Source of the DNA: Bilabrum cf. latius
Lineage: Eukaryota
NCBI GenBank assembly: GCA_965178125.1
Contig: OZ237751.1
Location: forward strand, 930,001-994,000
Length of the DNA stretch: 64,000 nucleotides
Direction of reading: 5' to 3'
Both the position numbers and the translations under genes were made by a program. Below the pieces are notes generated by a model, which was not told the DNA's origin, did not search any database, and worked only from the letters and a program-made list of their open reading frames with translations. Shown in pieces: positions 14,993 through 64,000 of the stretch; position 1 is the stretch's first letter; each line of letters starts with the position of its first letter.

Positions 14993-17008
14993 TTATACAA
15001 GCATCTCATCATCATCAGCTTCAGGATCTCTCGCGCAAATGTTCCTCATGATGTCCTCATCCTCACCTTCAGGCGGCGGAGGCAGCCGCCGCGTCCCGTC
15101 CGCCGGAACCACCCACACGACAGGCGAGCACATCTCGTCCCGAAGCCCCAGCCCGGATGTCGTTTCCTTGCCGTCTCCAAGTGTGCTGAACTCGCATTTT
15201 CCAACGAATTCGTCCCCTCTTTTGAATGGGATCGGCCGCACACGGACCACGGGGGTTGGCCTATCCATATCAATGCTCGCCCATGCCCCGTCGCCCTCGT
15301 CCACGCTCGCCCGCTCCGGCACCGGGCGAACATGCAGCAGAGGAGGCGAACATCCCCCAGAGCTCTGTATATGTTCCTCAATATTACCTCCCGGCGCGCT
15401 GCTCAAGCTGCAGGACGATCCCTCCCCGTCCCCATCCCCGCCCCGAAGCATCCCACCGCCACCGCGACCGCTGCTTGGCCGCATCCCAGCCGAAAGGACC
15501 GTGGCAGTGCTGGTAAGCGGACCCAGGCTCCCACCCGCCTCTAGGGCGCCCTGCCTGAGATCAGATCCCTCTACATCGCCCCATGACCCCGCTACCCCAG
15601 GAAAGTCAAATTCTGCCCGATGTCCTTTTTCTCCATCCTCCTCTTTCTCCTCCTTGGGGTGCTCGCTGCCTCCTCCACTATGCTGCAGCGAGGGGTACAG
15701 GAACGATTGTGCCCTCCCGTACCCCGGGAACCCCTCTATCCTGCCGATGCTGCCCACCGTCTGCCCGCCCCTCTGCACCTCCAGGGACACGTTCCTTCCC
15801 TTTAAATGGGCATGCAAGTGGAAGGCAAAGACCCAGGCGGTGCCGTGACCCAGTTGGAAGGCCTTGTCCAGCACGCGGTCCGTGCGCTCGCTCGGGCAGC
15901 GAAACCCACCGGTTGCGCGGCTTGATGACCCGGGCAGCCGGAAGCTCTCGTCCGACATGCCGAGCATCATGGCGTCGTGCTCTCGCAGCTGCTCGGTCGC
16001 GACCAGGTCTATACCGGAAGTGTCCAGGTAGCCCTGCCCCGGCATTTGCCCTGGAGGCAGGAGGGCAGGGAGGTAGTGAGTCTCCAGCGTGATGAACCGG
16101 AACGGGCTGCTCCTAGCATTGGATGGTTTAGCCTAGCTACCATATGCATGATGTCTTTGGTTTGTATCCCCGGCGGCGGCAGTTCCGTCGAGCTGTTCTA
16201 CACCCGATCCCCCGATGAGCACTCCCGCTTCGTCCGGCAGCACGAATGCCCTTGCTCCCCTGTCGTGGGTGAGCAGCAGCTAGGTGCACCAGCGGTCCGG
16301 TCCTACCTGGTCGCAAGAGAAGGGAGTCCCCACTGGGTGTTTTGGGTGCTTGGACTCGCACAGCTGCAGCGTCATGTGGTGCACCGCCCCGAGCACTGGG
16401 TCCAGGGGGATGCTGGACTGACCAACGCGTACTGAGCTGGGCCCTCGTGCATTCCCAGACGAGTTTAAATTTGGAAGCCTGGTGATTCTGGGCTCCATCC
16501 GCGTGATGTGCATGGGAGGCAGGCTGCCCAAATCGTACTGCGTGCACACCACGGCGTACTCGCTGGTTCGAGGCAGCGTGCGCACGATTCCGTCCAAAAC
16601 TCTGCGTCCATCGTCCGATGTAGTGTATGTATAGCTTCCGTTTCTTTCGTCTCCTTTCTTTGGCCAGATGTCCACGCCTCCCGTGGATAGCCGCAGCCGA
16701 ACCAGGCGCTCAAGCTAGCCGTCCGAGGCCCGCCGCGAGAACCCGCCTTCACTTACAGATATGCCAAAACCATGAGACATTTGCTGGATAAACTTATTCG
16801 TATTATACGTTACATTGTGGATATACTTGGGCGTTGGTGGGCGATAAGGGGCCTGCCAAAAGACGTGCTCAGTTCCGATGGTGCGAACTGGCTGTGTAGC
16901 TGACGAGCTCTCCACCATCCATAACGAGACCATTCCGAGAGACACGAGCCCTATTACCATAGTCAGTACCAAACGAACCCGGATTCTCTTCAGCGCATCC
17001 CCATTCAT
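14993..17008 (-). CDS. Copper type II ascorbate-dependent monooxygenase (DBH/PHM/MOXD1-like) with an N-terminal membrane anchor, 671 aa
   Basis: Motifs AVHHM and LETHY (CuH ligands), FHLHAH and DEMC (CuM ligands). Three in-frame TAG (16715, 16280, 16133); ends at TAA 14993-14995. Confidence 0.85.
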
Positions 17009-17143
17009 CGCGGGGGGTCTGCAGGGCGTTCGACCTCATCAACTACTAGCCAGGCTCAGAGTGCAGTGCAACCGAGACGCGCGGCTCAAAACTCGGCCAG
17101 TCACACTGTCGCCATTCCAATCGAATTCTTAAAGCATTCCAGC

Positions 17144-19346
17144 ATGCACAAATACACTGTCCTAGCGGTGGTCGCGGTTAGCGCAGTTCTAGGAGAGGTT
17201 CGGCTGCCAAAAATTTACGCCAATCACATGGTTCTTCAGTACGAGTGAGCTAAGCAGTTTACTGCCTTTGCCGCAGCCATCCCTCCTAATACTAATGATG
17301 TGATTTTTTTTATTGCATTGCCGCAGCTCTCCAACCGTATTTGGCTGGGCGGATCCCGGTTCAACAGTTGATGTTGCGTATCACTGTTCGTATCGAGGGC
17401 TGAATACTACCGTATCTGCGACAGCAGCTGCCGGTTCTGGGCGGTTTTCAGCTTCAATCTCTCCACAGGGGGAATCCTAGTCTGCTGAGGACTCGTGCAC
17501 TGTCACTGTGAGCCAGGTGGGCAGCAGTCTGAACGCAGTTCTGGCCGACGTCCTGTTTGGCACCGTCATTGTCGCCAGCGGACAATCCAACATGGAGTTC
17601 ACCGTGCCAACAATATTTGGAGGACAAGACATAGTGCACAACGCCTCGCTGTCGTCGATCCCCACTCTCCGTCTGCTAACAGTCGCCAAGATCCCGAGCA
17701 GCACCCCTTTGGACGACGTGCAGGGGCTCGAGCACTCGTGGGCGGCCTCCAGCCCGGCCACCATATGCGGGTTCAACGAGAGCGATCCGCAGCAGGACTC
17801 CTACTGTGTGCCCCACTGCGGCCCCTCCAGCGTTGTTCCCTCGTTCAAGCGACCGACCTGGGGGTATTTCAGCGCGATGGGGTGGCTCACCGGCCGCCAG
17901 CTCATGCTCGCCCACGGGCTCAAGACCGTCGGGGTGGTTGCAACCTCCTGGGGGGGCACCAAGATCGAGCTGTGGTCTGACCCGGAGTCCCTGGCTCAAT
18001 GCGCTGGCTCTGGCATCTCGGGGGACGCAACTCACGAGGACAGCACCTCCTCACCGCTCACCTCTTACGAATAGGAGCAGGCAGAGTCTCGGTCACCCGG
18101 AGCCACGGTCGTGGGGTACGGAACCTCGGATCGCGCGGCGCCGGAGGCCCTCGCCGGCGTTGGCCCTAGCGAGCTGTACAACGGGATGCTGCACCCACTG
18201 CTCGGCATGCCAGTCCGGGGGTTCCTCTGGTACCAGGGCGAGGCGAACTCAGGGAACACAGGGGAGGCCACCAAGTACGCCTGCCAGCTGCCCGCCATGG
18301 TGACGAGCTGGAGGCAGGGGTGGGTTTCGAACCCAGGGAACAGGAGGGAAACGGAGGGGACGCCCTTCGTGGCGGTGCAGCTGGCGCCGTGGGTGACGGG
18401 CGTGTCGGTGGCCGACCTGAGGCTGTCCCAGTACAATGTGACGAGTGCGGGGCCGGGGGCCTCCTGGATCCCGGCCATCGACCGCAGGGACCCGGAGTCT
18501 CCCTGCGGCGACGTGCACGTCCGCGGCAAGCTGCAGCTCGGGTAGAGGGTAGCCGCTCGCCTGGCCGCCTCCTGGGGGCTGGGGAACAACGACCCCAAGG
18601 TGGGGTGGGGGATGGGGCCTCTGCCCTCCGGTGCCGCCGTGGTGGACGCATCCCGAGCCGGTAGGGAGCAAGGAAACCAAGGCGTGGCGAGTGCGGCAAC
18701 CGTGGAGGTGTCGCTGTCGATTCACGTGCCCGACCAGCTGCCCCTGCGTCTCGTCGCCGTGCAGAACCAGACCGTGCCCGCGCCCAACACGCCCCCCATG
18801 ACCGAGATCCTGGTCGCAAGCAATACGCATGCAATTTCGTCTCCGTCTTCGTCATCTTCGCGGATGGGGGGATTGCGCGGGGAAGCGGCTGCCGGTGCGG
18901 GCGATAGCTCTAGTTCAACCGAAGGCTCCACCGGGCCAACCTACGCGTGGCAGGAGGCCGATGCAACGCTTGTGCAGGCCTCGCATGGCGGTGTGACGAG
19001 TGATGGCTCACCGGCCGGCAAGCTCGTGGTGTAGGTGCCTGCCGGCGTGGACGCGCAGAGCGTGGTCGGAGTGAGGTACGCCTGGTCGTGCGTGCCCCAG
19101 GGCGAGCAGGTGATGGACGCGGGGCTGGTGCCCATGGGCCCGTGGGCGTTTCTGGCGCCTGGGGTGTCATCGTCGTCGTTCTCGTCCTCGCCATGGTTTA
19201 GTCCCAGCTCTTCTGCGGTTGAGAGTGGCGGTTCTTAGGTTGCTGCAGGGGAGGAGACTGCGGGCGGCAGATTGGAGCTGGTGGCGGCAGTGCCCGGCGT
19301 GGCGCTGCCTGGGACCAACAGCGACCTCCAGAAAATCTGCAAGTGA
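17144..19346 (+). CDS. SIAE: Secreted sialate O-acetylesterase (SASA/SGNH family), ~706 aa; intron 17245-17326
   Basis: Signal peptide, then LPKIYANHMVLQ, FGWADPG, ASGQSNM, WGGTKIELW, LYNGMLHPL, WYQGEAN, DVH and VRYAW. Five in-frame TAG; ends at TGA 19344-19346. Confidence 0.88.
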
Positions 19347-21990: not shown

Positions 21991-22373
21991 GCGGACATGG
22001 CTTAAGGTCGGTGTCGAATGATTGCTCGGCTGCTGCGGAGCATTTGGATGTGTTTGCAAGTCCCTGTTTGAGAGCTTGGCCTCAGTTGGAGCGGATCTGG
22101 TGATCTGAGTGCACCTGCCACTGGTGTTCTGCAAGCCTGATAAGGACTGGATATCTAGATCGGCCTAATACTTTGCAAGGAATCGCTGAACCGTAGAGGT
22201 GGGCGCGTTCTCGACAAATTGACCATTTTGGAATTTTGGAATTGTTGGGTGCTATTCAAACGAAGCCAGATCAACACTGTCAATCCATCGTCTAAATTCA
22301 AATCGAGCATTATTGTGAAATTGGTGTTCCAGCTTTCTATCAGCCTTCTATAACCAATTAAAGTTGATAATCC

Positions 22374-25300
22374 ATGGCGACTTCAGGCGCAGATAGCGGC
22401 GCCGGTCGAAGCGATTCGACCCCACGGCAGAACTTGGAATCAAACGCGCCGGACCTTCCAGCAGGCGTGATCGAGGTCTACCACATGACCAAGACTGGGA
22501 CTAGTGCATAGCGTCATTCATTTGCGATGCTCTTGCTGGATCGGTGCGTAAAACCATCCAGTGGTAGAGGCGTGCACATGCAACACGGACACAGAGCTGT
22601 GTTTCGCGTGGCGATTCCCGCGAGCAAAACCGGTGCTGGTGGTGGCAGTGCCTCTGCTGCTCCTGTTCACATTGCAATTAGGACTGTTTTCAACGTGGCA
22701 CTGTCCACATCCAAGGTCGCAGCTTTGGAATTGAAGAAAGAAGTCGATAGTCTTGTCCCGTTACCAGAGCATCGCAACCTGGCACGCGTTATATTCGAGT
22801 GCGTGTGCAAACCCCCCCTTTGGATGGTGGAGATGCTGCCTGATCCGAGTGCAGTGTGCTTTGACGCTGGTAACGAGGATGGCGATGCCGGGGCGGAGGG
22901 TTTGCGACCAGCTGGTGCCGCTCCCCGGCGGCCCCGCGAGGCCCGGATGGTGGGTATGGAGCTGTTCGAGAGAACGCTGCGTGACCACCTGGAGATCATG
23001 GAGGGGGATGAGCCGGGGTCCATGCCTGATGATGTGCTGGTGCAGCTGTCCAGCGACATCACGGAGGGCGTGCACCACCTCCTGCAGCACGGGGTGGTGC
23101 ACCGTGACCTGAATCTGGACAACGTGATGTGGGACTCGAAGGGGGGTCCAAAGGGCGTGGGTCGGGCGGTACTGACCAGTCTCGGGAGCTCGCTGCGTGT
23201 GTATGTGGTCGATGCTACGTCACCATCAGCCGTAATTGCTGGTGCTGCTGCCGCTGAAAGTGTCGGCATTGCCCCTTCGTCCAGCGTGGAGGAGGCACTT
23301 GAGTAGGTCACGTACCGGTAGTTGAAGGATGGAGGTGGCGGCCTGGGCGGCAATCCGGCCCATCTGGCTCCTGAGGTGCTGGACGGGTGGTACAGGGGGT
23401 CCAAACCAGGAGGGGAAGACGAGGAGGTGCCATTCGGAAAGCAGGCCTCATGGGAGCTTGGCGTGCTGCTGTACGAGCTGGCCACGGGAGGGCAGCACCC
23501 GTTCGGGGACTCGTATCCTGGTGAGCTGCAGGACGGGAGCGAGACTAGGCCTGGCGAGCTGGCAGCTGGATTGCATGCATGTGAAGCTCCAATGGCAGGT
23601 CATGATGTGCTGTCGAAGCGTCCTCCTTCGTATGCACGTACCTTGCGTGGCCTGCTGTGTGTCGATCCTGGGGATCGGGTGAGCGTGGTAGAGGCTTAGC
23701 GCGAGCTGCAATCTCTGTATATTGGAACACTGCTGCCAGCCTTGCTTGCTGGTGGGTCCGAGTGCGAGTCAGCGGTGGTCAGCGTGAGGGAAGTGGTGGA
23801 CGGGCTGGTGGGCAAGGGGGACTGGGATGGGGTGTATCGTGTGCTGTGGCAGCTGCGGATGGAATATGGCGTACATCTAGTGGACGATATGGTGGATTCG
23901 ACCCGACAGCTGCTCGATTATATCCATGATACCATCACTGAGCACGTGATGTCCGACTCGGGCGAGCTGGTCAGGATCGTGACAAGACTCGGATCAGAAG
24001 GGGGGATGGATGCCGAGTTGGCGGCATTCTTGGTTTCTCGTATATGTTTAGAACATGACTCATATCGATGCCATGTGGTGGATGCGGGTGCATTGTGCGG
24101 ACTGGTGGCATTGCTTGGATCGGGCAAAGGCAGCGAGGCGGAGGAAGCGGCTGGAGCGCTTTGGAATATCGCTGCGGGATCGGGTGATCAGAAGCAGGCC
24201 GTGGTGGATGCGGGCGCACTGGGCGGACTGGTGGCATTGCTTGAATCGGACAAGGGCGAAGAGGCGGAGAACGCGGCTGGAGCGCTTTGGAATATTGCCG
24301 ATGGATCGGATGATCAGAAGCAGGCCGTGGTGGATGCAGGTGCACTGGGCGGGCTGGTAGCATTGCTTGGGTCCGGCAAAGGCAGGGAGGAGGCGGAAGC
24401 GGCTGGAGCGCTGGGGAATATCGCTGCGGGATCGGGTGATCAGAAGCAGGCCGTGGTGGATGCGGGCGCATTGGGCGGACTGGTGGCATTGCTTGAATCG
24501 GACAAGGGCGAAGAGGCGGAGAACGCGGCTGGAGCGCTTAGAAATATCGCTGCGGGATCGGGTGATCAGAAGCAGGCCCTTGTGGATGCAGGTGCACTGG
24601 GCGGGCTGGTGGCATTGCTTGAATCGGACGAGGGCAGCGAGGCGGAGGAAGCGGCTGGAGTGCTTGGGAATATCGCTGCGGGATCAGAGGATCAGAAGCA
24701 GGCCGTGGTGGATGCAGGTGCACTGGGCGGGCTGGTAGCATTGCTTGGATCGGACGAGGGCGAGGAGGCTGAGCTTGCTGCTTGGGCGCTTAGGAATATC
24801 GCTGCGGGATCGGATGATCAGAAGCAGGCCGTGGTGGATGCGGGCGCATTGGGCGGGCTGGTAGCATTGCTTGAATCGGACAAGGGCGAGGAGGCGGAGA
24901 ACGCGGCTGGAGCGCTTAGGAATATCGCTGCGGGATCGGATGATCTGACGCAGGCCGTGGTGGATGCGGGCGCACTTGGCGGACTGGTGGCATTGCTTGG
25001 ATCGGGCAAGGGCGAGGAGGCGGAGAACGCGGCTGGAGCGCTTAGGAATATCGCTGCTGTATCGGATGATCAGCGGCAGGCCGTGGTGGATGCAGGTGCA
25101 CTGGGCGGGCTGGTTGCATTGCTGGGATCGGGCAAGGGCGAAAAGGCGGAGCGCGCTGCTGGGGCGCTTTGGAATATCGCTGCGGGATCGAATGATCAGA
25201 AGCAGGCCGTGGTAGATGCGGGCGTGCTGGGCGGACTGGTGGCATTGCTTGGATCGGACAAGGGCAGCGAGGCGGAGGAAGCGGCTGGAGTGCTTGGGAA

Positions 25301-25940
25301 TATCGCTGCGGGATCGGATGATCAGAAGCAGGCCGTGGTGGATGCGGGCGCACTTGGCGGACTGGTGGCATTGCTTGGATCGGGCAAGGGTGAAAAGGCG
25401 GAGCGCGCTGCTGGGGCGCTTTGGAATATCGCTGCGGGATCGAATGATCAGAAGCAGGCCGTGGTGGATGCGGGCGCATTGGGCGGACTGGTGGCATTGC
25501 TTGGATCGGGCAAGGGCGAAGAGGCGGAGAACGCGGCTGGAGCGCTTTGGAATATTGCCGATGGATCGGATGATCAGAAGCAGGCCGTGGTGGATGCAGG
25601 TGCACTGGGCGGACTGGTGGCATTGCTGGGATCGGACATGTGCAGCGAGGTGGAGGAAGCGGCTGGAGCGCTGGGGAATATCGCTGCGGGATCGGATGAT
25701 CAGAAGCAGGCAGTGGTGGATGCGGGCGCATTGTGCGGACTGGTGGCATTGCTTGGATCGGGCAAGGGCAAGGAGACGGAGCTTGCTGCTGGGGCGCTTA
25801 TGAATATCGCTGCGGGAACCTCACGTCAACAACAGGCACTAATCAATGCTGGTGCAATTTATCCCCTGAGGCGGTTGCGAGACTCGGGACACCCAGCGTC
25901 ACAAAGGGCCTCAAGGACACTGGAAGTGCTCAGCCGCTGA
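22374..25940 (+). CDS. PINK1-like (pseudo)kinase fused to 14 armadillo repeats, 1188 aa
   Basis: Kinase motifs HRNLARV, VVHRDLNLDNVM, GGNPAHLAPEVL and WELGVLLYEL..HPF. Four in-frame TAG (22509, 23304, 23319, 23697) join the kinase to the ARM array; ends at TGA. Confidence 0.8.
24072..25838 (+). repeat. 14 x 126-bp coding tandem repeat (42-aa armadillo units)
   Basis: Unit AVVDAGALGGLVALLxSxKGxEAExAAGALxNIAAGSxDQKQ recurs with an exact 126-bp period (24075, 24201, 24327 and so on). Confidence 0.95.
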
Positions 25941-27044: not shown

Positions 27045-28727
27045 TCAGGACTCTTTCCCCCTCGCCCCGCCCGCGGCCTTCAGCAGCCGGCTCTTCACGC
27101 ACCAAGACAGCCCGCAGCAACCCGTGCACCGCATCACCAGAATGCAGCACGCCAGACCTAGGGCAAGCGCAGGCACCACCACCGCCACCACCGGGTACAG
27201 GATGTACGGGTTCAGCAGGCCCTCGTCCTCGTAGGCACCCGTCATTTCAAGGTACGGCTGCCCGTGCAGCTGCGCGCAGAGCCCCGCCACCTCGAGCTCC
27301 ATGCTCCCGGGGTCGGGGCTGTACCCCAGCACGGCCACGCCGGGCTCGCGCAGGGTATTTGTTCCCTGGGGCAGGCCGCCGTGTTCCCCCAGTAGGGAGG
27401 CCTGGTCGGGCTTGGGATCACCGGGCTGCCACGCACCATCAGGCAGTGCACCCTGGAGGAGAGCGGTGAGTGCGTGTGGCCCGAGCTCAGGTCCCCGCCG
27501 AGCACCTGCCCCGTGCTCGCTCGCTTGTTCCCTGAGCCCCCACCCGTCCCTCTGCAGGTGGGCGACCACCTGGTAGGCCCCCATGGTGGCTGGCTCGAGA
27601 AAGGCGAGCATGGTGGTTAGGTCGCAGAGCGGGATGCCTGACGCCTCGAGCAACTGCTGCACCGAGGGACCCCCGCCGGTGCCCCGGAGAGGGCTGGTCC
27701 CGCCAGCCGAATGCTGCTATTCCTCCAAGATTCCACGCTCTGCTGCTTCCTTTTCTTCCTCCCACTGCCTCTGCCTCTCCAAAAGGTCGTTCAGCAGGTC
27801 AAATCCATTCTTCTCGTCGCCCGCCCACCGCTGCCGCTGCTTCCAAAGAACGCTGCCTAGTAGACCAGGAGACGCTGCCGCTGATATTTCAGCGTGAAGT
27901 CTTTGCATGTACTCGCAGGCGCCGGCGCCGGGGCAGCAGTCGAGCATGCGGAGCAGGTGCTCCCACGTGAAACGAGGAGTGCGGCAGGTGCTTCTCGGAA
28001 TTATGACACGTGGCACACGCGCTCGCATAACAACATCCGTTGCGTTTCCATCTGCCATTGTAAAATCGAGGCCAGCGGGCTCGGGACCAGCAGCTGCGAG
28101 TCTGCCAGATTCAGCTGCAAGCGCCGATGCAAGCTGCGTGTTTGCCGACCAGCCCGGCAGCTTCTCATCCTAGCTAGTCTAAGGCAACGGTAATACTGCA
28201 GGTCCTGATATGTACACAGCTCTCATGCGGCTCGCAGTGTCTGGAGCGCGAGCAAACGCTGCCGCTAAGTTCGTGAGGGGGCCGAGACAAACCACCACAA
28301 CCTATCTAGGATTAGAGTTCGCGACTGTGTCCACAATAAAGTCTGCGGCTGCATTCTTCCCATACAGATCAGTCTTGTGCACGTCAGCACCCTTCACTCG
28401 CGGGACTTCTTTGTTGATGCCACCGATTTTGAGAAGGTTGGCCGCGTTTCGAGAGGTGTGAGTGAGCAGCGAGTTGCCGTACGAGACGGTTACGCCCGCC
28501 AAAATAGCATCCCGCGGCGCTCCAACGTACAGTAAGAATGCAAGGTCGTCGTCCAGATCAAAGCCAGTCTCCACTAGCCCAGCTGGGTCGAAATCAATGA
28601 TCAGCAACGCGCGATCCGGCCACAGAGGCTTCTGTGCCTCCTTATCAGACGAGTTTTGAGCGGTATCTGCCAACAACGAATGTATCATACAACATAATGC
28701 AAGGAACTACCAAGCAATGGTACGCAT
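27045..28727 (-). CDS. Nucleoside hydrolase (IU-NH family) with a signal peptide and C-terminal TM helix, 560 aa
   Basis: IIDFDP...DLDDDLA Asp cluster, GVTVSYGN, VVCLGPLTNLA and PLCDL. Five in-frame TAG; starts MRTIAW*FLALCC and ends at TGA 27045-27047. Confidence 0.8.
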
Positions 28728-28851
28728 ACAGCTCCTGGAGTGCTGCAATGTGGGCACTACAGACCTTGGCCTTCTGCGAGTCCGGAGCCACAGCGGCCGT
28801 GCCAACTACCGCATTGAGCTCCTTGCGACAACTATGCACCTGTTCAGGCCT

Positions 28852-31602
28852 TCACTTGGCCTCGTACCAAGTCTGCGCCACCTGCGAGTCCACGACGAGG
28901 TCGACGAGCAGCGGCTTCTCGAAGGGCCGCTCCATGTCCTCCACGAGGCACCTCTGGGCCTCCTGCGAGGACTCCGAGGGCCCCTCCAGGATGACCTCGT
29001 CGTGGATCTAAAGGAGCATCTTCCACCCTATCTTCTTGAGGCGCTCGTCCCTCGCGATGTTCAGCATCGCCATCATCACCACGTCGGCAGCCCCCCCTTG
29101 AATGGGTGTGTTGATGGCGGCCCGCTCCGCGTGCCCCCTCAGTCCCCGGTTAGAGCTGTTGATGTGCGGCAGGTCGCGGTACCTGCCCATGAGTGTGCGG
29201 GTGGCGCCCTCTCTCCTGGCGATCTCCAGCACCCGGCTCTGCCAATCCCTCACCTCTGGCCTGCCGTCGTACCACCTTTGTAGCGTGTCCTTTGCCTCCT
29301 CGATCGACACGCCCCAGTCCTTCGAGAGACCCACAGCCGTCTTGCCGTACGCGATGGAGAAGTTAAGCACCTTCGCTTTCCTTCTCTCCGATGCGTACAC
29401 GTTCTTGATGAGCGGCTTGGGCGGGCCCCCGTCAGGCCCCGGCTCCCCCTTCCCGTCCCACTCGAGCAGCACCTCCCCCTTGTCCACGGCCTCCCTGATG
29501 TGCTCGTACATGTCCAAGGCGGTCCTAGAGTGGAAATCGCCCCCCAGCTCAAACGCCTCAATCATGCTGCTGCACCGTGCCATGTGGGCGAGCACCCGGA
29601 GCTCCAATTGCCCGTAGTCCGCCACCAGCAGGGAACAACCGGGCTTGGCGTGGAAAGCCTTGCGGATGCCGTACCTGTCTTTCTCCAGCGCCGGCTGGTT
29701 CTGTAGGTTGGGTCTGCGGGCGGAGAGCCTGCCCGTCTCGGTGTTGAGGTTGAGACTGCAGTGCACTCTGCTGTCCTTGTCCGCCATCTGCTGCAGGGGC
29801 AGGATGAACGACGCCAGCATGGTCTGCACCGCCCCGGCGTTGTGCGCTGCCGCGATGGCGCGGCACGCTCGCTCGCCCTCCTCCCCCCCCCCGAAGTGAT
29901 CGTAGGCCCTCCCCCAGCGGGGAGGTTCCGATTCCGGATCCCCCGCCAGTTCCCTGAGAACGGCCGCCGACACGGCGGGCCAGCCCTTGTCCGTCCTGGT
30001 CACGGGTTCGATTCCCTGCCCTACTAGCACCATGTCCCTCATTTTTTTCGCTTTTTTCTTGCCTTCCTCGATGAACCCCTCCGTGTTCTCCACCTTGAAG
30101 GCCCGGTGACGCGGCCACACGTCGGGGTCACCTGCCTCTGCCGCCGCCTCGAGCTCAGCGATAGTCTCGTCGTCGAAAGCGGCGGCGCCTTTGCCTTTGC
30201 CCTTGCGCTTGGCCTTGGCCTGATCCGCATGCATGCTGCCGTACGTGCTGCTGTCCAGAGCTGCCTGCCCCCCCGCAAACATGCCCTCCTAGGCGGGCTT
30301 CTAGTCCCCGGCCTTGTTCTTCAATGCCGCCCTCTTGCGCCTATCCCTCGCCGCCTGCTGGCTCTTGGTGAGCCTGCGGCACGGTGCAAACAGCAGGTGG
30401 GCCTTCTGGGGGTCGGACCCGGGGTTCATGCGGCTGGCCTCGGGGCACAGCGACGCGGCCCACTCCATGAATAACCGCTCCGAGTCCTCTTGTTCCCTGC
30501 GGGCTAGCTCCTCTGCCCTAGGGAGATGCTCGTCCACGTCCACCCGTATGCCCTCCCTCTCCATGTCTGTGAGCACCACGGCGAACGGCACCACGTACTT
30601 GGTGTAGAACTCCCAAAGGGACTACCCGCCCGCCCAAGGCCTCTGCCTCAGCCTAGCCTCCAGGTCCTCTCTCAGCCACCAGGTGGCCTCTGCGTCGTAG
30701 GTCGCGTAATCGATCCATGCGGATCTCCAGTGGGGCAGCCTCTGCAGCATGTGCACCGGCGGGACGAACGAGTCCTTCCCCTCGGTCCCGTCCCTCTTGA
30801 TCCTCCTCACCGCGAACCTCTCCTTCATGGGCACCTTCCTGTGCCCGAGCAGGTCCTGGGACAGTGCCTCGAGGGAGTAGCCACCTTGCTTGGATCGGGC
30901 GGAGGACCACGTCCGGGCCATGTGCATGGTGTCGCCGCACAGGCCCAGGACGTCGATCCCGTGGTTGTAGAGGACGTGCCGGTCGAATCCAAAGTTGTGG
31001 AAGGCCTTCCCGCGGGAGCTGTCTTCGAAGTAGGCCTTGAATAGGTCTATCACGCCCTCCGCCGGCCCGTCGTTGTCGATCCACAGGCGGGGACCACTAC
31101 CAAAATCCACAGAGTCGCCGGCGAACGCAGTGGCGCAAATCACCCTACCGTTGCCGACGGGAGACTGCGCGGTCACGTCGATGTCTGCGACTTCCGTGTC
31201 CCACGCAACTGGAGCCTCCGGGGATAGCGAGAGCAAAACTTCCAGCGCGCGGTTGGCTGATTTCTCGTCGTTGACGACCGTGAGGCCTTCGGGCAGGCGC
31301 TCCATCGGGCCTTGGTGCGGGACGTAGGCGGCCGCCGACGCCGCGGCGCTTCTTGGTGCGAGGGGTTCTGGTTCCGAAGTCTTGGCCGAATCTGCGCGCG
31401 TTGCCGACGAGCACAGCCTTCGAGTTGCATACCTACCTACGCTGGAAGTTTCTATCGCAGACCTTGGCCGAAATTGCTGCAGTTTCAATTTCAGGGCCCT
31501 TGTGGTGCGACTCCTGATAGTCCTACTGCGACAGCTAGATGAGAGCATCTAGGCCAGAGCTTGACGCAAAGTGACAACTAATGGCGCCTTGACAGCGTTC
31601 AT
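28852..31602 (-). CDS. POP: Organellar family A DNA polymerase (plant/protist POP type) with 3'-5' exonuclease, 916 aa
   Basis: Exonuclease motifs AWDTEVADID, FHNFGFDRHV and YATYDA. Polymerase motifs TETGRLS, ADYGQLELR, RRKAKVLNFSIAYG and LL*IHDE, with C-terminal WYEAK. Arg/Ser-rich presequence. TAG at 31549, 30622, 30301, 30289 and 29008; ends at TGA. Confidence 0.92.
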
Positions 31603-31898
31603 ATCAGCAAAGTGAACCAGTATTCTTCTAATAAGTCATGTTGAAGGGTTCGCTGCGATCCAACTCGGAGCCACCGCCGGCGCACGAACACAACTTGTTT
31701 TGCGGTCCGTATACCACAACTGAAAAACTGCTACGGATATTGGTTTCTTTCAATTGAGCGCGCTACTTGATGTTGCCCCGAGGCGTGCGATTGGCCAAGC
31801 ATTTCGGCCCGCTTCGCGGCTCCTCTCGCCTGCACCGGGCCAGAACCTGTCCTCATGCAACTTTCAGCCATAACAATGTATCATTCAGATCATAGTTA

Positions 31899-33152
31899 AT
31901 GTCAGTGTTAAGCAGGGGCCTGACGGCTCTTGCTGGTGGCTGCGCCTGCATCAGCATGTCTTCCTCCGGAACAGTCATTGCTTCCGAGCCACGCAACGGA
32001 CAGGGGACAAGCAAACGAAAGATATCGTCAGGGCGGATGCATGGATAGAATGCATACAGAGAGGGCTGCGGCGAATTTTCCTCCCCAGAGGCGTTGCCGG
32101 ATCCACCCGTGTACCTGTCCGCATCCACTGCCGCCGAGATCGACAAGCGGCTGATGGCCCAGCCCGGCTTTTCCATCGACTAGCTCATGGAACTTGCTGG
32201 CCTCGCATGCGCTGTTGCCACGGATGATTTTGCTCGGCAGGCGTGTGCCGCTGGAAGCGAACGCGGGGGACCTGGAGGCGAGAACGGAGCAAGTGCTCCT
32301 GAGCGAGCACCCGCCCCCGCCAGAACAGTCACCGCGAGCGGCCCCGGCGCTCGCAAGTCCATCCTGGTCCTCGCCGGCCCAGGGAACAACGGAGGCGACG
32401 CTCTCGTGGCGGCCCGCCACCTGAAACACTTCGGACATGCCCCGGTTGTGGTATACCCAAAGGTGCCTAACAAGCCGCTCTTTTTGGTAAGATTACAGGC
32501 CATCCAGCCGTATCGACCCGTGTGTTCGCACGCCATCCGATCAATTTAGCACATACCATTGATTGCTGCCGCAACTAAGCGCAAAGCCGTGCCTGGGCCA
32601 CCCGCTTGCCCAGTCCGTGATATCCGTTGCTCCGATCGCCATTTGATCCGATCTTATCGATCGCAGGGTCTGTTGCAGCAGCTGGAGGACGCCGACATCC
32701 CTGTGAGCGCCGGCCGAACCCCCGACGGAGCACTCGTCACACAGGAATCCCAGATCCCGAGCGCCCACGCGATCCGGGCACAGTTCGACCTAGTCCTTGA
32801 CGGCCTGTTCGGGTTCAGCTTCAAGGGAAGCCCGCGCCCGCCCTTCGACGGCTTGCTCAAGAACGTGCAGGACTCCGGCGTGCCTGTGCTGAGCATCGAC
32901 GTGCCCTCTGGATGGGACGTGGACAGGGACACTATGGCCAAAGGCGCGCCCGAGGAGGCGGTGCTGCGGCCTTCTGGGCTCATTTCGCTGACAGCCCCCA
33001 AGCAGTGCGCCAGGGGGTTCGCCGGGGTGCACTACCTGGGGGGAAGGTTCGTCCCGGGGAACATTCAGCGAGAGTTCGGTCTGGAGGGGTGCATGGGGCT
33101 GTACCAGGGAACGAGCCCCATCGCTCGGCTTGCGCCCGCCCGAAACGACTGA
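31899..33152 (+). CDS. NAXE: NAD(P)HX epimerase (YjeF_N family); intron 32487-32666
   Basis: [72 protein letters not shown] and HYLGGRF. GTAAG...CGCAG intron. Start codon is tentative (alternative in-frame ATGs at 31956 and 32037). Confidence 0.92.
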
Positions 33153-33528: not shown

Positions 33529-36500
33529 TCAGCTGGAGCCGCCCCCAGTCGCCTGCACCACCGCGCTCGGGTCGTACCCGTCCAGAGGGTTGCGCGTGGT
33601 GGCGCTGGGCCCGGTGGCCCCCGAAGCTCCCATCAGGTTCTTGCCCGACTGGCCCCTCGTCATGGCCCCCCCCTCGGCAGGGGCAAACCCAGGGGCTGCC
33701 TTGCTGCCGCCCGATGATGACCCGCCCGATGATGACCCGCCCACGGGGATGCGCACCACCCTGTCCACGCCGTCCTCCCCGCGCCTGACCTCGGTGCGGT
33801 ACTGCTGGCCCGTGGTCTCGGCCGCCTGCCTCTCGGCGAGTCTCTGCGAGTCGGACTTCTGCCTGCAGAACATGACGAGCGCGCCCGCTGCCACGCCGAT
33901 CACCAGAGCCGCGGCCACGAGGCCCAGGGCCACCTCCAGCCCGAGCTTGCCCTTGTCGTCGCCCTTGCCGCCGCCGCCAGAGGCGCCCGGGGAGGCACTC
34001 ACACCGGGCCCCTCCGTGGGCACGGGCAGCCCGCTCACGGAGGGCCTCGCCGTGGGCGCACCGGTGGGGTTGCCGGGCAGAGAGGACGGCTGCGCGGGGG
34101 CAGCGGACACCTGCGGCGAGCTCGATCCATCTCCGGGGTCCGCCAGGGAGCTGACGGGGAAGCCCGAGAGGTCCGTCCGCAGGTCGCCCAGCAGCTGCCC
34201 GCTGGCCCGCACGGACCGCATGACGGACCGGACCGTGCCTTCGTCCGCGGCGGTCTTGATGTTGACCTGCACCGTGACGGCCACGCCAGAGGCGCCGGCC
34301 GCCTGTGCCCTCCTTCCGGCAGACCTGAGGAGCTGCCTGCGGAGGGAGCTCCCTTCCTACTCCTGTCGCTATTCTTCTTCTTCTTGTCCTTGTCCTTGTC
34401 CTTGTCCTTCCTGTTGCTGCAGGGGGCTGGCAGGGGAGGTGGAGGGGGTCGGGTTGGCCGAGGGCGAGGGAGCCGCCCAGTCGGCCACTTTGACCACCAG
34501 CACGTCGTCCTTGGCGTAAGGGGCAGAGGGGGCGGGGGCACCGCCCTCGCCCGCGGAGATGTAGCCCGCCACGCGCGTGCGCAGCGCGCTCGTCACACCG
34601 GTGTCGAACTGCCCGCGGCTCACGCCCTCCATGACCCACGTGGTGGTGACCACGGCGCCCGCGCCCGCGCCGGCAATCGAGGAGCTCTGGCACACGCCGG
34701 TGCCCATGCCCAGAGAGAGCAGAAGCGCCCTCCCCGTCCACTCCACCGGCCCCATGCCCTCCTACTGGCTCGGCATGGCAAAGCACTGCGCGCCCGACTC
34801 GCAGTCTGAGCTGCTGCTGCAGGCGAACCCAGTGGTGCATCGGCGAGTGCACGGCCCGCCGCAGTCGACGTCCGTCTCACCCGAGTCCTTCCGACCGTCG
34901 AAGCAGCTGGCGCCGCCGTCCGGCACCACAGTTCCGCAGTTGTACCCGGAGTAGTCCGGCTGGCAGTTGCACTCCGCCACCGGCGTGTCAGACCCGGGCA
35001 GAGTCACCGCTCGGCACTGCCCGTGCCCCGAGCACGTGACCTGCTGGCAGGGGGGCGCGGGGGAGGGCAAGGGTGTGGGAGCGGGCCCGAACTGGTCCCA
35101 CTTGACCATCGTCCACGCGGGCGTGCTGCCCCCAGTCACCGCGCCCGCCGCCACTGAGACGTTCAGCGCCACCTGGGCGTCGACGGTCTGCGGCTTGTTG
35201 AAGAAGAAGGTCACTTCAAAGATCTGAGACCCGGTGCTGGCGTCCGCCCCTCCCACGCTCACGATCCCCTCAGGCTGCACCGAGATGCTGTCCGCCGTGA
35301 ACCCAGAGACCCGCTTGTTGAAGCTGAAGGTGGCCTTGAACGGCTCGGACCCGTCGTGCAGCCGGGGCGCGATGATGGACAGGGTCGCGGGGGCACCCGC
35401 AGGAGGCGGGCGGGTGTATGGCAGCTGCAGCGCCTTGGAGGCGTAGTTCTGGATGCCCTCCTCGCCCACGGAGTTCACGCAGCCCTGCAGGATCTGCAGG
35501 GTCATGGTGCCCAGCGCCGCGGGGCTCACGGTGAAGCTGTAGTCCCTGCCCTCCGTGTCCTCCTGCTCGACGCCGGACACGAACGCGCGCGTGCCCGTGA
35601 CCTGCAGGCACGTCGCGGCCATGCCGGTCACGGGTCGGTCGAACGAGGCCACGACCTTGACGGTGGATCCCCTGCCCTGGTGGGAGGACGGGCCCGTGAG
35701 GATCACCGTGGCGGGAGGGGCTTGGTAGGTGACTGTCCTCGTAGCCTGCACGTTCTGCTGGCCCGAGGAGCCCAGCACGTTGGCTGGGACCGTGATGACG
35801 ATGTCCGTGGGGTCCGTGGGGATGAGCTGGAGCCTGGCGAGGGTCGTATCCGATGCCGAGAACGGCTGCGAGAACCGGTTGTTGAGGATGGTGGCGCCCT
35901 CCACCTGCACCACGCTGCTGAGCGGGCGGTTCTAAATGCCCGGCATCTCCTTGGAGAACTAAATCGTCACCTGGATGCCGTCGAACTCGCTGCCCCGGCC
36001 TGTGGGCCCCTGGTGCACGGTGGTGGTGAAGATGCTCGGAAGGGCGGGGCCCGGGGCGTCGGGAGCGTACGTCACCCTCAGCGAGGCGAACTCGTTGCCC
36101 GGCAGCGCGAATGAGTTCGAGGGCAGGAAGAGGGAGATGTCGGCCTCGGCCGTGGGGTTGATCTGGAACTGCAGCACCGTGGTGGGGAACGACACGCTCA
36201 CGTCGCCGAAGAGGTTGTCGAAGCCGTTGAGGGCTACCAGCTGGCCGACCAGCCAGGTGCGGATGGCCTGGTCGTTGCTCTGGTCGATCGTGGAAGGGGG
36301 CCGCACGGGGCTGCTGAGCGTGGCAGTGACCAGGAACGGGTCCACTCCGTTGTGGGTGGCGGGTGCCTCAAGCGTCGCGTTGGGTCTCTGCACCCCCGCG
36401 GCTCCCTCGGTGAAGGGGGTCAGCTTCCTCGCGAAGAAGTTGCCCTGGCTGAAGCCCAGGTCGTTCCCTGGGACTGTCACGGAGATGGACGAGAACTGCC

Positions 36501-38394
36501 CGGCGCGGTTGGCCACCGGCAGGATGGCAGCCACGAAGAGGGTGCCCCCACTGGTTACGTTCCACTGGTTGTTGGGGTTGGGTCCCACCAGCCGCCCCCC
36601 GGTGATGGTAAGCTTGGACGGAGGGAACAAATCGGGGCGGCTGATGGGCGCGTTGAGGCGAATCGTGACGTAGAGTGGTCTCGGCACCGGGTTGTTGGCC
36701 GAGTCGTTGCCCACCGTGTAGAAGGCCGGGCCCTCGATGCCCACCTGCACGGTGGGGCTCTCGCTCGTGTAGCGGATGAACTCGAGGGGGCCCCGCTGGA
36801 AGGTGGCGTTGGGGAAGGATTCCAGCTGCACCTGCACCGACGGGAATCTGCCGCCGTCACCCGCCTGCGCGGACACGTTGAAGAAGTACGTGTTGGATGC
36901 GTCGTCGTAGTCCTCCGCGGGCCACGTGTTCCTCAGCCATTTGCTGCTGATGAACCCGCCCGTCACGCGGAAGTTGTTGCCGTTCAGCGCGGTGAGCGGG
37001 TTGCCGATGTTCTGCTTCTGCTGGGCCGACAGGAATACCTGCAGGGTCAGGGGGATGTCGAGAGAGTTGCTCTCCGAGTACGAGTCTGGTCCCTGGAGCG
37101 CGAAGCGGATGGGACGGTCCCCGCCGCCACCGGGGGTGCCCCCGCCCCCCGCGTTGGGGTCAAATCGGATCAGCTGGGTGAAGTTCTTGTTCCCCGGAGG
37201 CGCGAAGACGTTCTCTGCCACGGAGATGGTGAAGTTCTCGTCCGTCGTGGGGAACAGGGTGAAGCGCACGAGCGTGCCCGGGGTGCCGAAGCTGGATTCG
37301 AAGGCCTGGAAGGAGCCGAGCTTGAACCCCGAGGAGCTGAGCTACAGGATCGACTCGGACACGTTGTTGGCGTCAACGGGGGGCGTGATCCTGATGTTGC
37401 CGAAGATCTGAGTCGTGGTGGGTCCGTAGGACGTGGCTCCCGTGTACTCCAGCGTAGCCCTATCGATGTTCGTCCCGCTGCCGTCGAACTGAATGGCGTC
37501 GCTCCTCGTGGCTGCGTTCGAGGCGGCGCCCAGCGCGTCCTGCTGCACAGTCAGGCGCATGGTGCCGGTGGCCCGCGGGGTCAGCTCGACGTCGTAGTTG
37601 AGGCACTGCCCAAAGGTGCAGCGAGGGGTGACGTCCGTGACGGTGCCGCCCGACAGGCCGAGGCTGGAGGTGGAGAGGGGCTTGTAGTCGGCGGAGTTGA
37701 TCGGCCCCCGCTCAAACACCACGTTGGCGGTGACGGTCTTCTGGCTGGCTATGTAGTAGCTGGGAGCCGAGATGCTCGCCTGCACCCGTGCGTCCGCGTT
37801 GGGTGAATACTGGCTGGAGAAGAACGCGGCGTTGTTCCCCTGGTCCACGGAATCAGTCGGAAGGAACAGACGCACGAAGTTGCTCAGGCCGCCGCTGCCG
37901 GACGAATCAGCGTTTGGCTGTACGCTCAGCACGAAGACAGTCTTGGGCTGTTCCATGTAGACGGCTTGAATCGTGCAGGCCGTCGTTTGGAAAATTGAGG
38001 CCGTCACGCCATCCACCGGCTAAGTGAACCCGACACTAATATTGAACGGAGCAGTGCGCTCATTGTAGTACCTGCGCGCTTGATGGGGCAAGGAAGTGGC
38101 TGAAGGAATTGCCATGCGCCTGCTTGGGTCTGCGCCGTGGACATTTCTCTTGCACGGAGGAACACCGCGGCAGATTCCAATCAATACAGAAACGCTCATC
38201 GAATTAGAATAATTTTAACCAAGGATAGGGCGAAAGTCCTTGCAACAAACGATCTGGACGGATCGCGGGCTCATGAATCCACGGATAGGCTTGCAGCTTC
38301 TGTTGGCTCACGATGGTCCTCTGAACGAAGCAGATACCTTTCCCAGAGATTGTGAGATCCCACATAGCACAAGTGCCAGCGCTAGCGCGCGCAT
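33529..38394 (-). CDS. Type I surface receptor/adhesin A: signal peptide, tandem Ig-like beta domains, EGF-like and ETDVDCGG Cys-rich module, TM, cytoplasmic tail (~1540 aa); intron 38072-38311
   Basis: Exon 1 is MRALALALVLCGISQSLG. Five ORFs lie in one frame joined by TAG (7 in total). Contains CSGHGQC..CNC..YSGYNC, CFDGRKDSGETDVDCGGPC and a TM (VALGLVAAALVIGVAAGALVMFC); ends at TGA. Confidence 0.82.
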
Positions 38395-38641
38395 TGTGTT
38401 GCTCCACCGATATCTCGCGTGGAAGACTCTCGGGAAATCGAATCGAATAGGAGAGGATGAATTAAACTTGTGTGGTTGCAACCGGCCGTCGCCGCAGCAG
38501 ACGTGCAGGGCACTGTAGCACGAACGACGAGGACACCGAACACGTCGCCAGATACGCGAAATTGCAGAGGTGGCAGTAGAAAACTTACGATTTTAGAACC
38601 AAATACTGAAATATTGCAAATTTGTGGACGTACAGGCTTGC

Positions 38642-40822: not shown

Positions 40823-41037
40823 TATGAATGCCTTCATGCTCGATTTCTCGTCGTCGAGGGCCGGAATGCCGGCATCATCGTGCGGTGCAGCCGCCTCGGG
40901 CTGGTTCGTTGATTGGATCGCCGTAGGTGGCATTCGAAGCTGCGTCGTGCGCTAGACAGGACAACTCGCGGTGAAAATACGGCTAAATTCTTGAGCTTTT
41001 TATTTAGTTGTTCACATTGTTCACATAAGCGTACACA

Positions 41038-43271: not shown

Positions 43272-43513
43272 CTGGGCGTGATATAACAAAACCATACCGT
43301 TATATGCTGTATTGCTCAAGCGTTTCTATGTCACATGTTTCTGCTCAAGGTCTATCGCCGGCGGGCGCGCATCAGGATGGTGCAGTCGTCTGCTCGAGCG
43401 CGAGGTGGTCGCAGGAGCAGACTGCGCCATTTACGCCCGCATTCGTCTACAAACTGCACTCTCCTTTATTCCAGGTTTGAAAAGTACACGGCTTGGACTT
43501 GAAGTCGTGCCAT

Positions 43514-45751
43514 ATGGGGTGTGCAGCCTCAGAAGTACCCGCAAACCACGATGTATGTCCTGTTCGCGTGTATGCGACGTGCACAGGGTACTCCCTTAGC
43601 CCTTCAGCACACAATGGATAGCATCACACGCGTCTAAAGATCCCATTTTAGACATATCAAAATGAAAATGCTCGCGACTGCTCTTTGCTATCGCAGGGTG
43701 AGGCAGAAATCATCGATTTTACGAAGAAAGCTGGGGTACGTACGTCGCACACACAGACGCCTGGGTCGATAATTCAGGACCCTACGAGAATCAGGCAAAG
43801 CGTTGGTGCAAACCGGCAGTCGAATCATACATCAAGCAACAAAGATTCGTATTCCGGTGGTAGGTCACCTGATGCCGACAACCGTCGAGCTACGGCCGGA
43901 CGTCATAGCGCAATCGCCGGCGGCTCCCGACGCACAATCTGCGGCTGTAGTCAGCTTGCCGGGCTGATTGATCGACAGACGAGCAACGACGTAAATGTAT
44001 GGATCATTGCAGTCCAGCGCACCGACCAGCCCAGGGTATTCTTCGTGCCCGGCAGGGTTGAGGAGAAGGCTGTCACCCGGTGGTTTAGCGAGGCGACCGC
44101 CGTGATTGACCGGGTTCTGCGAGAGCACAATGGCAACAGCGAAGGGAAAATACCGAACGGTGCCAATCACAACCATGCAGCGCCTGTGGGAGGCAATGCG
44201 GCCGAGTAGACGGCGGCCCGGGCCTGGTCGCTCCCGGGCTCCGAGCACGATGGCATCGAGGTGCCGGGGCAGCTGCTTCTCGTGGAAGCCAAACCGAGCA
44301 GCACTACGCAGACGAGTGCGCGTGATTGTATTTTATTCCGATCGCCGAGGGGCCTCCTGCTGCAAGCAGACGACGCCTGCACTGCCGGGACCGCCAGCCC
44401 AATGATCACGCCCGCACCTCACTGCTCAACTCAGCCGGCAGGTGCAGCGCCGGAGGGGTGCACCAGCCAGCCTGGCTTTATTGCGCGCCCGGCATGGGGA
44501 AATGACCAAGGGCTCGCCATCTTGCGGGATCGAGGCGATGCCACGGGCGATGCCGGAGACAAGCTGCTGGCAGCAATTGGCGTGCGCACCCATTCGAAGA
44601 GAGCGGCGAGGGCGATGGGACGGCGAGGAAATCTACCCAAGGTGGCGCGGCCGGTCAGGCAAGCATTCTGTGTTCCAGTCCTCGATCTAGATACTAAAAG
44701 CAGCGTGCGACTAGATGCATAGCTGCTTCCTCTGGGCTGGCAGTGCACCCCCAAACCGACGCCGGCACGCCGCGCCGCTTTTCCCCCTCGATTGCGTTCA
44801 GCAGAAGCTGCGATGGCTTCCAAAACGGGTTGCCAAGCCACATTTAGAGCTGGGGCTATTAGTTCCACGCTGAGTCTGGCCGCACCCCCAGAGGACTCGA
44901 ATCATGGATCCACACGGACAATGCGTTCACACCATGCCAGCGGGCGAGACACGCAGCCTTCATCCTCGGGGAGTCATATGAGCACCACTGCACCAGCCAG
45001 AGTGAAACCGGCACACCAGACTCGCTACCAGGCCGCGACCATAGCGAGCGCGGGCACCGGGGCAGACCAAGGTCCGCGGAGTCCCCTGCGGCGTCGATCC
45101 AGCGACACGAACGCTGCTAGTACTGCCAGCTCACTTGGATCTCGATTTCAGGAGGCAACTGCCGTGCCGAGCGAGTCCCGAATCTTGGCAGCAATCGCTC
45201 AGGTCACACTTGGGGATGGGGTGCCGGCAGACGCTGTACTAGTGCATGAGAGTTAGCCTGCCAACAGGAGGGCGACTGCATCGAGAGAGCGCCGCCTTCG
45301 CTCTCCCATAGGAACAGGGGCATGTACTCGAACAGGTCGGTCTACCAGTTTTGCATCGCTTGGCGTGGTTGACGGCGATCCTGTACCACCGCTACCGCAG
45401 TTGCAACTGTAGCAGCAGTTGCAACTGGAGCAGCAGGAGCAGCATGAGCAGCAGGATCCAGTGCCCAGTGCGCTGCACCTTCGCCCCACAGTGGTCATGC
45501 TGCCACCGGGCCACAGGCTGCACCGATCCGAGCCCGCTGCTGATCCATCACATCCCATGAAGCCCGAAGCTGATAACAACGCTAGTGTTGTATCCACGGC
45601 TGCTGCCCGACTCAAGCCCGTGTTCCTGCTCCGGACCCGTGGTGCCGCCTGGGCCTGGCTCATGCGGCAGGGGGCCTTCTTGGCTCACCTGCGGGCGGTG
45701 CTGGGGCTGCACTCGATGGTGGTGGTGCGAATGGAACGATTCGATCAGTAA
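43514..45751 (+). CDS. Uncharacterised MGCxxS family, copy 3; intron 43553-43696
   Basis: 13-codon exon 1 (MGCAASEVPANHD), GTATG...CGCAG intron, the same blocks, 4 TAG (one within QLQL*QQLQL); ends at TAA. Confidence 0.72.
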
Positions 45752-45825
45752 TGCAGCGTGGCTGGGCCACCTTGAGAGCTTGTCAGAACGAGTCATCCGG
45801 TGATCTAAACATGTAGGAGGTCAAG

Positions 45826-63300: not shown

Positions 63301-63707
63301 TCTACAGTATTTGATACGAACGCGTTCTCGGAATGCAAGACAGCCTTTCCGTTCACGAACACCGTGCTGATGGCATCGATACCATCCACTTCTAAATACA
63401 CTCTTTCGTTCGCACTGACCACGACGTCTATCGTTTTGGTGTAGGTCCACTCGTCGTATGCGATCCACGCCGATGTGACATCGTTGTTACTAACCATGGG
63501 CTCTGGGATTGTGCCGCTGCGCAGTAAATCTAACTGCACCTAGCCAGGCGTACTACCGTTGATGGATATGGATCCATTGGAGTTGACTACAGCCCAGCCA
63601 TCACCGTCGAGGGAATCCACTACCAATTGTGCAAGTGTGACGCCCGGCATCGTTGCGGCACCGAACAATACCACAGAGATCCCCCACAAAGATCCGGTTG
63701 CTCTCAT
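60314..63707 (-). CDS. MANBA: Secreted GH2 beta-mannosidase, ~1092 aa; intron 61715-61829
   Basis: Signal peptide, WDWG, FYFRINGVPIFAKG, RVWGGG, HHPSI..CGSNE (acid/base), RFVSEYG (nucleophile) and YWQ.N..W.APSWSSVEY. TAG at 63540, 63210 and 62544; ends at TAA. Confidence 0.9.
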
Positions 63708-64000
63708 ATTTAACGGTTGTATTCGCTCCGGTGCGCCCCTCACTGGCACTAGCGCGTCGCTAGCGCGAGCAAACGGCAATGAGCCACCAGGGAATCTCGT
63801 TGATGAACCTTCCCTCAGGCTCTCCCCCAGTCTAGCTGGAGCTGCGCAGCTACCGGCACCAATGCAGTTGGCTGGTGGATGTGGTGGCGCGTAGGATGTG
63901 GACGTGGCCGACGTGCCAGCCGTGGTCGCAGCTCTTGCTGCCGTAGGAGCTAGAGGCGCTCCGCCAGTCTACTCTGCTGATCCGAAAGCAAACGAACACG

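Follow-up and report, generated by a model that had tools for sequence, protein, structure and literature searches.

An in-frame TAG at the motif C glutamine of an organellar DNA polymerase gene points to UAG as a probable glutamine codon in the nuclear code of a Cafeteria relative

A 64 kb stretch of Bilabrum cf. latius DNA, here called the window and used for all position numbers, carries on its minus strand a gene for a family A DNA polymerase in which a TAG codon stands in place of the conserved glutamine of motif C. Under the standard code this codon would end the protein before its active site, in a gene that otherwise appears intact, which raises the question of what TAG stands for at this locus. 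The answer reached here from sequence comparison is that the window very likely uses a lineage-wide nuclear code, carried by a relative of Cafeteria with a genome rich in guanine and cytosine (GC), in which UAG specifies Gln and UAA and UGA are stops (NCBI table 15 type). The polymerase frame and the TAGs within it are the following.

28852..31602, minus strand: polymerase frame, POP-type family A with a 3'-5' exonuclease domain (Pfam, homologues).
29008..29010, minus strand: in-frame TAG at the conserved Gln of motif C, K-M-L-L-TAG-I-H-D-E (sequence, homologues).
30289..30303, minus strand: two TAGs, at 30301-30303 and 30289-30291, inside a lineage-specific insertion (alignment).
30622..30624, minus strand: TAG at a variable column, W-A-G-G-TAG-S-L-W (alignment).
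31549..31551, minus strand: TAG in the N-terminal extension, part of the protein only with ATG 31602 as the start codon, as is presumed.

The codons around motif C read aag atg ctc ctt TAG atc cac gac gag gtc atc ctg gag ggg on the minus strand, with the TAG at 29010..29008, and the frame closes with tgg tac gag gcc aag TGA (WYEAK-TGA, stop at 28854..28852). It is open from 31635, below the last upstream TGA (31636-31638), down to 28852; the five TAGs listed above are the only in-frame stops, and neither TAA nor TGA occurs within it. Candidate starts are the first ATG (31602..31600) and the second (31305..31303), the choice between them being presumptive, and the conserved part of the protein is preceded by an Arg/Ser/Ala-rich N-terminal extension that is possibly an organellar presequence. 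Both Pfam domains were found, DNA_pol_A (PF00476, E 1.9e-79) and the 3'-5' exonuclease DNA_pol_A_exo1 (PF01612, E 2.5e-11), and the frame is otherwise intact across 916 codons, in agreement with the initial annotation, which had described an intact polymerase running to WYEAK-TGA.

A homologue search in which 8,000 candidates were scored returned 433 proteins at E ≤ 0.001. The top homologue was protein P0001 of Cafeteria roenbergensis (62% identity, 99% of the query covered), followed by proteins from further assemblies, oomycetes, diatoms and other protists, and the top matches were eukaryotic. As the names given by the sources of these homologues include mitochondrial DNA polymerase A (Heterostelium, Plasmopara) and plastid-targeted DNA polymerase (Bigelowiella), the window enzyme is identified, by sequence, as a eukaryotic organellar (POP-type) family A DNA polymerase. 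Alignment with homologues, one of the checks proposed in the initial annotation, showed Gln in the column of the motif C TAG in 15 of 15 aligned proteins, and the TAG likewise falls opposite the Gln of 'mllQvhdelvle' in Taq polymerase (4bwj_A); the earlier placement of this codon, at 29008-29010 of the minus strand, at the motif C Gln is thus borne out. The catalytic columns are all present, including the invariant D563 and Y564 (in A-D-Y-G-Q-L-E-L-R) and H768, D769 and E770 directly after the TAG, and the Taq and window polymerases align across residues 641-817 with their catalytic columns matching.

A scan of metagenome contigs with the polymerase returned 31 loci, among them a contig from a related organism (L001; 18.6 kb, GC content 0.57) whose polymerase is 82% identical to that of the window. 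L001 is syntenic with the window (GC content 0.62), with several neighbouring genes in common and with rearrangements. Its polymerase is a single open frame that ends in WYEAK-TGA and has CAG at the motif C site, and it contains three TAGs, each opposite a Gln of the window protein (residues 316, 537 and 566). Two of these residues are invariant among 16 aligned sequences, 537 (the second Gln in N-L-Q-N-Q-P) and 566 (the Gln in A-D-Y-G-Q-L-E-L-R). The alignment of L001 to the window polymerase begins at frame residue 72. Opposite the two window TAGs in the insertion, L001 has Ala and Asp; at the variable column (30622-30624) it has Leu, and 15 homologues have Arg (5), Leu (3), Gln (3), Gly (2), Lys (1) and Thr (1).

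At the other 30 loci no TAG aligned to a query residue; two of them (L026 and L028) have a TAG within an insertion, L002 has a TGA and L017 a TAA. Locus L003, which comes from the same data set as L001, has a GC content of 0.73 and a polymerase with 61% identity over 645 aligned residues and no in-frame TAG; its several frame changes are probably introns.

Selection on the coding sequence was assessed between the window and L001 from the proportions of nonsynonymous (pN) and synonymous (pS) sites that differ, and not as dN/dS, the ratio of the corresponding substitution rates, since synonymous sites are saturated (pS 0.67-0.79). The polymerase gave a pN of 0.12 and a pS of 0.74 over 846 codons, and the other five orthologous pairs described below gave pN values of 0.20-0.35 and pS values of 0.67-0.79. 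In the 51 codons that follow the motif C TAG, pN was 0.05 and pS 0.90, so that this segment, for which the initial annotation had asked whether evolution was neutral, is under strong purifying selection. From this low pN relative to pS, the part of the polymerase that termination would remove is among its best conserved. The view put forward in the initial annotation, that termination at the motif C TAG makes no sense for an intact polymerase, is supported by the homologues, by selection and by the relative's own TAGs.

The pattern was followed through six orthologous pairs between the window and L001, namely the polymerase and the five genes listed here.

27045..28703, minus strand: nucleoside hydrolase (IU_nuc_hydro) adjoining the polymerase (Pfam E 2.1e-24; L001 orthologue 65% identical).
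17304..19346, plus strand: SASA-type carbohydrate esterase with five in-frame TAGs (Pfam).
33529..38214, minus strand: large surface-type protein with seven in-frame TAGs (L001 orthologue, window paralogue).
31758-33152, plus strand: NAD(P)HX epimerase (YjeF_N; Pfam E 4.5e-28).
32181..32183, plus strand: in-frame TAG at a conserved Gln of the epimerase, F-S-I-D-TAG-L-M-E-L-A-G (structure homologues).
14993-17035, minus strand: copper monooxygenase-like gene, ending in TAA.

The window members of these pairs contain 17 TAGs, of which 15 lie opposite a residue in L001 and 6 of those 15 opposite CAG or CAA; the L001 members contain 20, of which 17 lie opposite a residue and 7 of those 17 opposite CAG or CAA. 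Pooled, a Gln codon lies opposite 13 of the 32 TAG sites. Across these alignments, Gln stands opposite Gln in 54% of cases and any other residue stands opposite Gln in 0-7%. When possible meanings of TAG were scored with an empirical substitution table, Gln obtained a log-likelihood of -78.3 and the next best residue, Glu, one of -102.3, a gap of 24 natural-log units. By this comparison the evolutionary partners of TAG are those of Gln.

Among the single genes, the nucleoside hydrolase has four in-frame TAGs within the part aligned to L001, and in the SASA esterase two of the five TAGs are opposite CAG or CAA in L001. In the large surface protein two of seven are opposite CAG, one of these also being opposite Gln in the window paralogue at 53925-58406 (plus strand); when the two large window paralogues were compared with each other, two TAG sites, one per copy, were opposite Gln and the remaining TAGs opposite other residues or gaps. 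The epimerase TAG at 32181-32183 lies opposite Gln in both mouse AIBP (2dg2_A) and the yeast homologue 1jzt_A. Judged from these alignments, several genes of the two related organisms carry TAG within coding sequence that is conserved and under selection, and the pattern extends past the polymerase to every homology-backed gene that could be tested in the window and in L001.

As a separate observation on the epimerase frame, its residues 244-337 have no counterpart in the mouse and yeast homologues and are probably an intron that by chance leaves the frame open; of the four TAGs in the frame, one (residue 264) falls within them.

The codons that still act as stops were sought in stop-blind alignments, in which all three stops were treated as unknown residues, and at the ends of genes. 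In the three pairs with at least 56% identity (2,061 columns), 12 TAGs were found in the window and 8 in L001, with no internal TGA or TAA; the sole other stop was the shared terminal TGA of the polymerase. The off-frame expectation for the same number of columns is about 29 TGA, 13 TAG and 4.5 TAA. The ends of orthologous genes comprise seven TGA, four TAA and no TAG (n = 11). In both organisms the polymerase TGA lies at the C-terminus common to the homologues, and the window and L001 copies of the nucleoside hydrolase stop at the same residue, the former with TGA and the latter with TAA. Examples of ends in TAA in the window are these.

14993..14995, minus strand: TAA ending the copper monooxygenase-like gene; the L001 orthologue ends four residues later, with TGA.
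45749..45751, plus strand: TAA ending one of four tandem paralogues; two sisters end with TGA at about the same place.

TGA is the commonest stop in the window. UGA thus appears to be kept as a terminator and so does UAA, the latter from a small sample, and TAG, with none of the 11 ends, does not appear to end genes, these being few for judging the loss of UAG as a stop.

Several results weigh against a lineage-wide reading of UAG as Gln. The partners of TAG are not Gln at 19 of the 32 sites (Glu 3, Gly 3, Ala 2, Asp 2, Ser 2, Asn 2, Lys 2, Leu 1, His 1, Met 1); these fit variable positions, yet they leave room for some ambiguity. In none of 15 cases is TAG kept as TAG in both organisms, an outcome that is expected because synonymous codon choice is at saturation (pS about 0.7) and TAG accounts for only about 11% of Gln codons (85 of 762 in 15 long frames). 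The three weaker stop-blind pairs (46%, 40% and 26% identity) do hold TGA (11 in the window, 7 in L001) and TAA (1 and 3, respectively), which were tentatively attributed, as a group, to alignments running past gene borders and through low-complexity sequence. The length of open reading frames was rejected as evidence: the standard code yields 2 frames of at least 600 codons, a sense TAG 20, a sense TGA 20 and a sense TAA 4, and since long frames are just as numerous for TGA as for TAG, only homology-backed frames were relied on. Scans of the window and of L001-L003 yielded no tRNA gene, and the sequence analysed contains no eRF1 gene, so that the decoding machinery is unseen; there were also no Rfam matches in the window and L001. 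None of the 10 sequencing runs that contain the stretch is recorded as RNA, so that translation of UAG and the absence of editing are presumptive, and the evidence base as a whole consists of 64 kb and one 18.6 kb contig of a relative.

The sample of gene ends, just 11, is a further such point, and it leaves room for the alternative that fares best, an ambiguous or context-dependent code in which UAG would be Gln within genes and still stop some of them. The tRNA scans of the window and L001-L003, in which no decoding machinery was seen, are also compatible with a dual code of this kind. We nevertheless regard it as improbable, as TAG is at none of the 11 orthologous gene ends and shows no sign of being avoided inside genes. 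With TAG taken as sense, 15 frames of 660-2,060 codons hold 85 TAGs in 16,181 codons (0.53%), near the off-frame density of 198 per 32,362 codons (0.61%), and the base that follows the in-frame TAGs is not strongly biased (G 30, C 25, A 18, T 12; n = 85).

TAG might instead be a sense codon for a residue other than Gln, such as Glu or Leu, or for a mixture. The 19 non-Gln partners, the second rank of Glu and the variable polymerase column, where L001 and three homologues have Leu, would agree with this. It is nonetheless quite unlikely given that TAG occupies four invariant or deeply conserved Gln columns, and given the likelihood gap of Gln over Glu.

More unlikely still is a standard code combined with U-to-C RNA editing, by which transcripts would regain CAG. 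The runs supposed to be RNA are in all likelihood DNA, which leaves this explanation some room, but about one codon in 200 across all genes would need a site-specific change, at sites that shift between close relatives, and we know of no nuclear editing system of such a kind. That the polymerase is a pseudogene, or has recently acquired a nonsense mutation while an intact copy exists at another locus, is scarcely credible: the search for an intact copy was limited to the window, but the frame and the catalytic columns are intact, pN is far below pS after the TAG as well as before it, the L001 orthologue has TAGs at different Gln sites, and unrelated neighbouring genes show the same pattern.

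The base itself was compared in four sequencing runs over 28600-31700, using contigs and no raw reads. Contigs from three runs (X1, X5 and X6), belonging to three studies, span 29008-29010 with no differing letter; X1 covers the whole of 28600-31700 in one contig, X5 covers 28600-29295 and X6 28600-30121. The contigs therefore show T and not C at the position that the initial annotation had wished to see confirmed; X1 is possibly the window's own source, and the fourth run (X8) has no coverage of the motif C TAG. A sequencing or assembly error with C as the true base has next to no chance of being right: contigs drop rare variants and one run may be the window's source, but the contigs of three studies are identical across the TAG and the 85 in-frame TAGs of the long frames cannot all be mistakes. 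The motif C TAG is neither a lesion nor an error.

In the same comparison, the letters of window positions 28600-31700 were found identical in runs labelled as at least three different organisms, from three studies, and small shares of this segment also occur in protist and algae metagenomes. The organism of the window may commonly accompany others in cultures or samples.

With UAG read as Gln, the polymerase would be made at full length with Gln at the motif C position. The codon would presumably be read by a tRNA-Gln with the anticodon CUA, one base from the normal CUG; a CUA anticodon is to be expected because UAA still terminates and CUA cannot pair with UAA. The release factor eRF1 would in turn have lost its affinity for UAG. 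A plausible route is that UAG was lost as a stop in a GC-rich genome with TGA as the usual stop, and could then be captured by a mutated tRNA-Gln. The same argument for tRNA-Gln(CUA) and eRF1 has been made for Iotanema, in section 9 of PMC5304391, which also reports a change in the GTS motif of the eRF1 N-domain.

The eukaryotic content of the window consists of spliceosomal introns and eukaryotic domain families. A quick maximum-likelihood tree of 22 polymerases, a single-gene tree with support only from the Shimodaira-Hasegawa-like approximate likelihood ratio test (SH-aLRT), paired the window with L001 (SH-aLRT 100) and placed Cafeteria as the sister of this pair (91), all three lying in a group that includes two further assemblies (100). 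The window is best explained as part of the nuclear genome of a GC-rich stramenopile flagellate; by sequence, its polymerase is closest to that of Cafeteria. The polymerase of Cafeteria roenbergensis has the same exonuclease and polymerase architecture; unlike that of the window, it stands in the database at full length and carries the motif C Gln.

Nuclear changes of the genetic code are rare, with ciliates the group best known for them, and those in which UAG is changed and UAA kept as a stop are rarer still. The closest parallel to the window is Iotanema spirale (Fornicata), whose nuclear code has UAG as Gln and UAA and UGA as stops (Panek et al. 2017, PMC5304391). As described in the sections of that paper considered here, UAG alone is reassigned, to Gln, UAA still stops and the same tRNA-Gln(CUA) and altered eRF1 are predicted; Iotanema, however, belongs to an unrelated supergroup, Metamonada, and its code was derived from a transcriptome, whereas the window is genomic sequence of a GC-rich stramenopile and a second related organism shares the code. 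The ciliates Hartmannula sinica, Trochilia petrani and Protocruzia tuzeti are likewise given a table 15-type code, with UAG as Gln and UAA as stop (PMC11687900). In the passages of PMC11687900 concerned, the inference also relies on internal UAGs at conserved Gln columns, with 58-70% there against 41% of 32 sites and a single relative here, but UAA stands at 93.5-100% of aligned protein ends, in contrast to TGA as the commonest stop in the window. The same passages name Iotanema, a rhizarian, Scotinosphaera and a few ciliates as cases in which UAG is changed while UAA stays a stop.

Codes with both UAR codons as Gln (table 6 type) are listed in the legend to Fig. 4 of PMC5304391 for many ciliates, hexamitin diplomonads, ulvophyte algae, oxymonads and Amoeboaphelidium. 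In the account given there, they resemble the window in the change from stop to Gln via tRNA-Gln variants and differ in that UAA is reassigned together with UAG, whereas TAA ends genes in the window. The same codon has been given the same amino acid in crAss-like and other gut phages, with TAG as Gln ('code 15'; PMC9523058); as presented in the parts of that paper considered, these systems are viral and often stage-specific, in contrast to a cellular eukaryotic nuclear genome.

The Fig. 4 legend of PMC5304391, which enumerates lineages whose nuclear codes were known at the time to be non-canonical, includes no stramenopile, and the passages considered of the Cafeteria genome paper name a non-standard code for the mitochondrion only (PMC6972860). 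A full-text literature search, with subscription-only papers outside its scope, found no report of nuclear stop-codon reassignment in a bicosoecid or any stramenopile, and the bicosoecid papers that mention UAG concern, to judge by their titles, mitochondrial genomes. We propose, with moderate confidence, that this is the first nuclear code change seen in stramenopiles, that it concerns UAG only, reassigned to Gln, and that it arose after the split from Cafeteria, in a GC-rich and TGA-dominant genome, in at least two related organisms and with the window sequence present in runs of several unrelated projects.

A stramenopile case would represent one more independent origin, and comparison with Cafeteria, a close relative that uses the standard code, would give a before-and-after view of tRNA-Gln, glutaminyl-tRNA synthetase and eRF1. 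If the reading is true, it would offer a young and possibly culturable case, with a standard-code sister, in which to study the uncoupling of UAG from UAA, as well as a test of codon capture under GC pressure instead of the usual AT pressure. Standard gene callers would fragment almost every gene of the organism, splitting the polymerase five times with loss of its active site, and since its DNA occurs in runs filed under several other organisms, fragments there may be mis-annotated.

Two further genes of the window were recognised by their domains.

60314-63998, minus strand: GH2 beta-mannosidase in two frames, 61761-63998 and 60314-61795 (Pfam).
22371-25940, plus strand: frame for a kinase with ARM repeats (N-terminal protein-kinase domain).

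A canonical intron (GTGAGT...CAG) of about 115 bases, running from about 61829 to 61715, links the two beta-mannosidase frames. The TAGs of this gene were set aside as uninformative, with variable residues opposite them in PDB homologues (Y/C/A and T/N/K), as was the first TAG of the nucleoside hydrolase, which has Glu opposite in plant enzymes. In the kinase gene, positions 24075-25817 (plus strand) consist of 13.8 tandem copies of a 126-base unit (85% matches), that is, near-identical armadillo repeats fused to the kinase. A gene for an EF-hand protein is also present in the window.

The two large paralogues at 33529-38214 (minus strand) and 53925-58406 (plus strand) encode about 1,500 residues each and are 41% identical, with an orthologue in L001; they show a weak bacterial Ig-like match, a Cys-rich stretch, a likely transmembrane segment and a conserved tail. 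Four neighbouring paralogues lie at 38219-47969, three on the plus and one on the minus strand, without a Pfam match. An N-terminal block is common to all four, and in three of them a block of about 45 residues at the C-terminus is strongly conserved as well (84% identity between two of these). Finally, a 48-base tandem repeat (2.3 copies, 96% matches) occupies positions 2181-2292, in a region without a supported gene.

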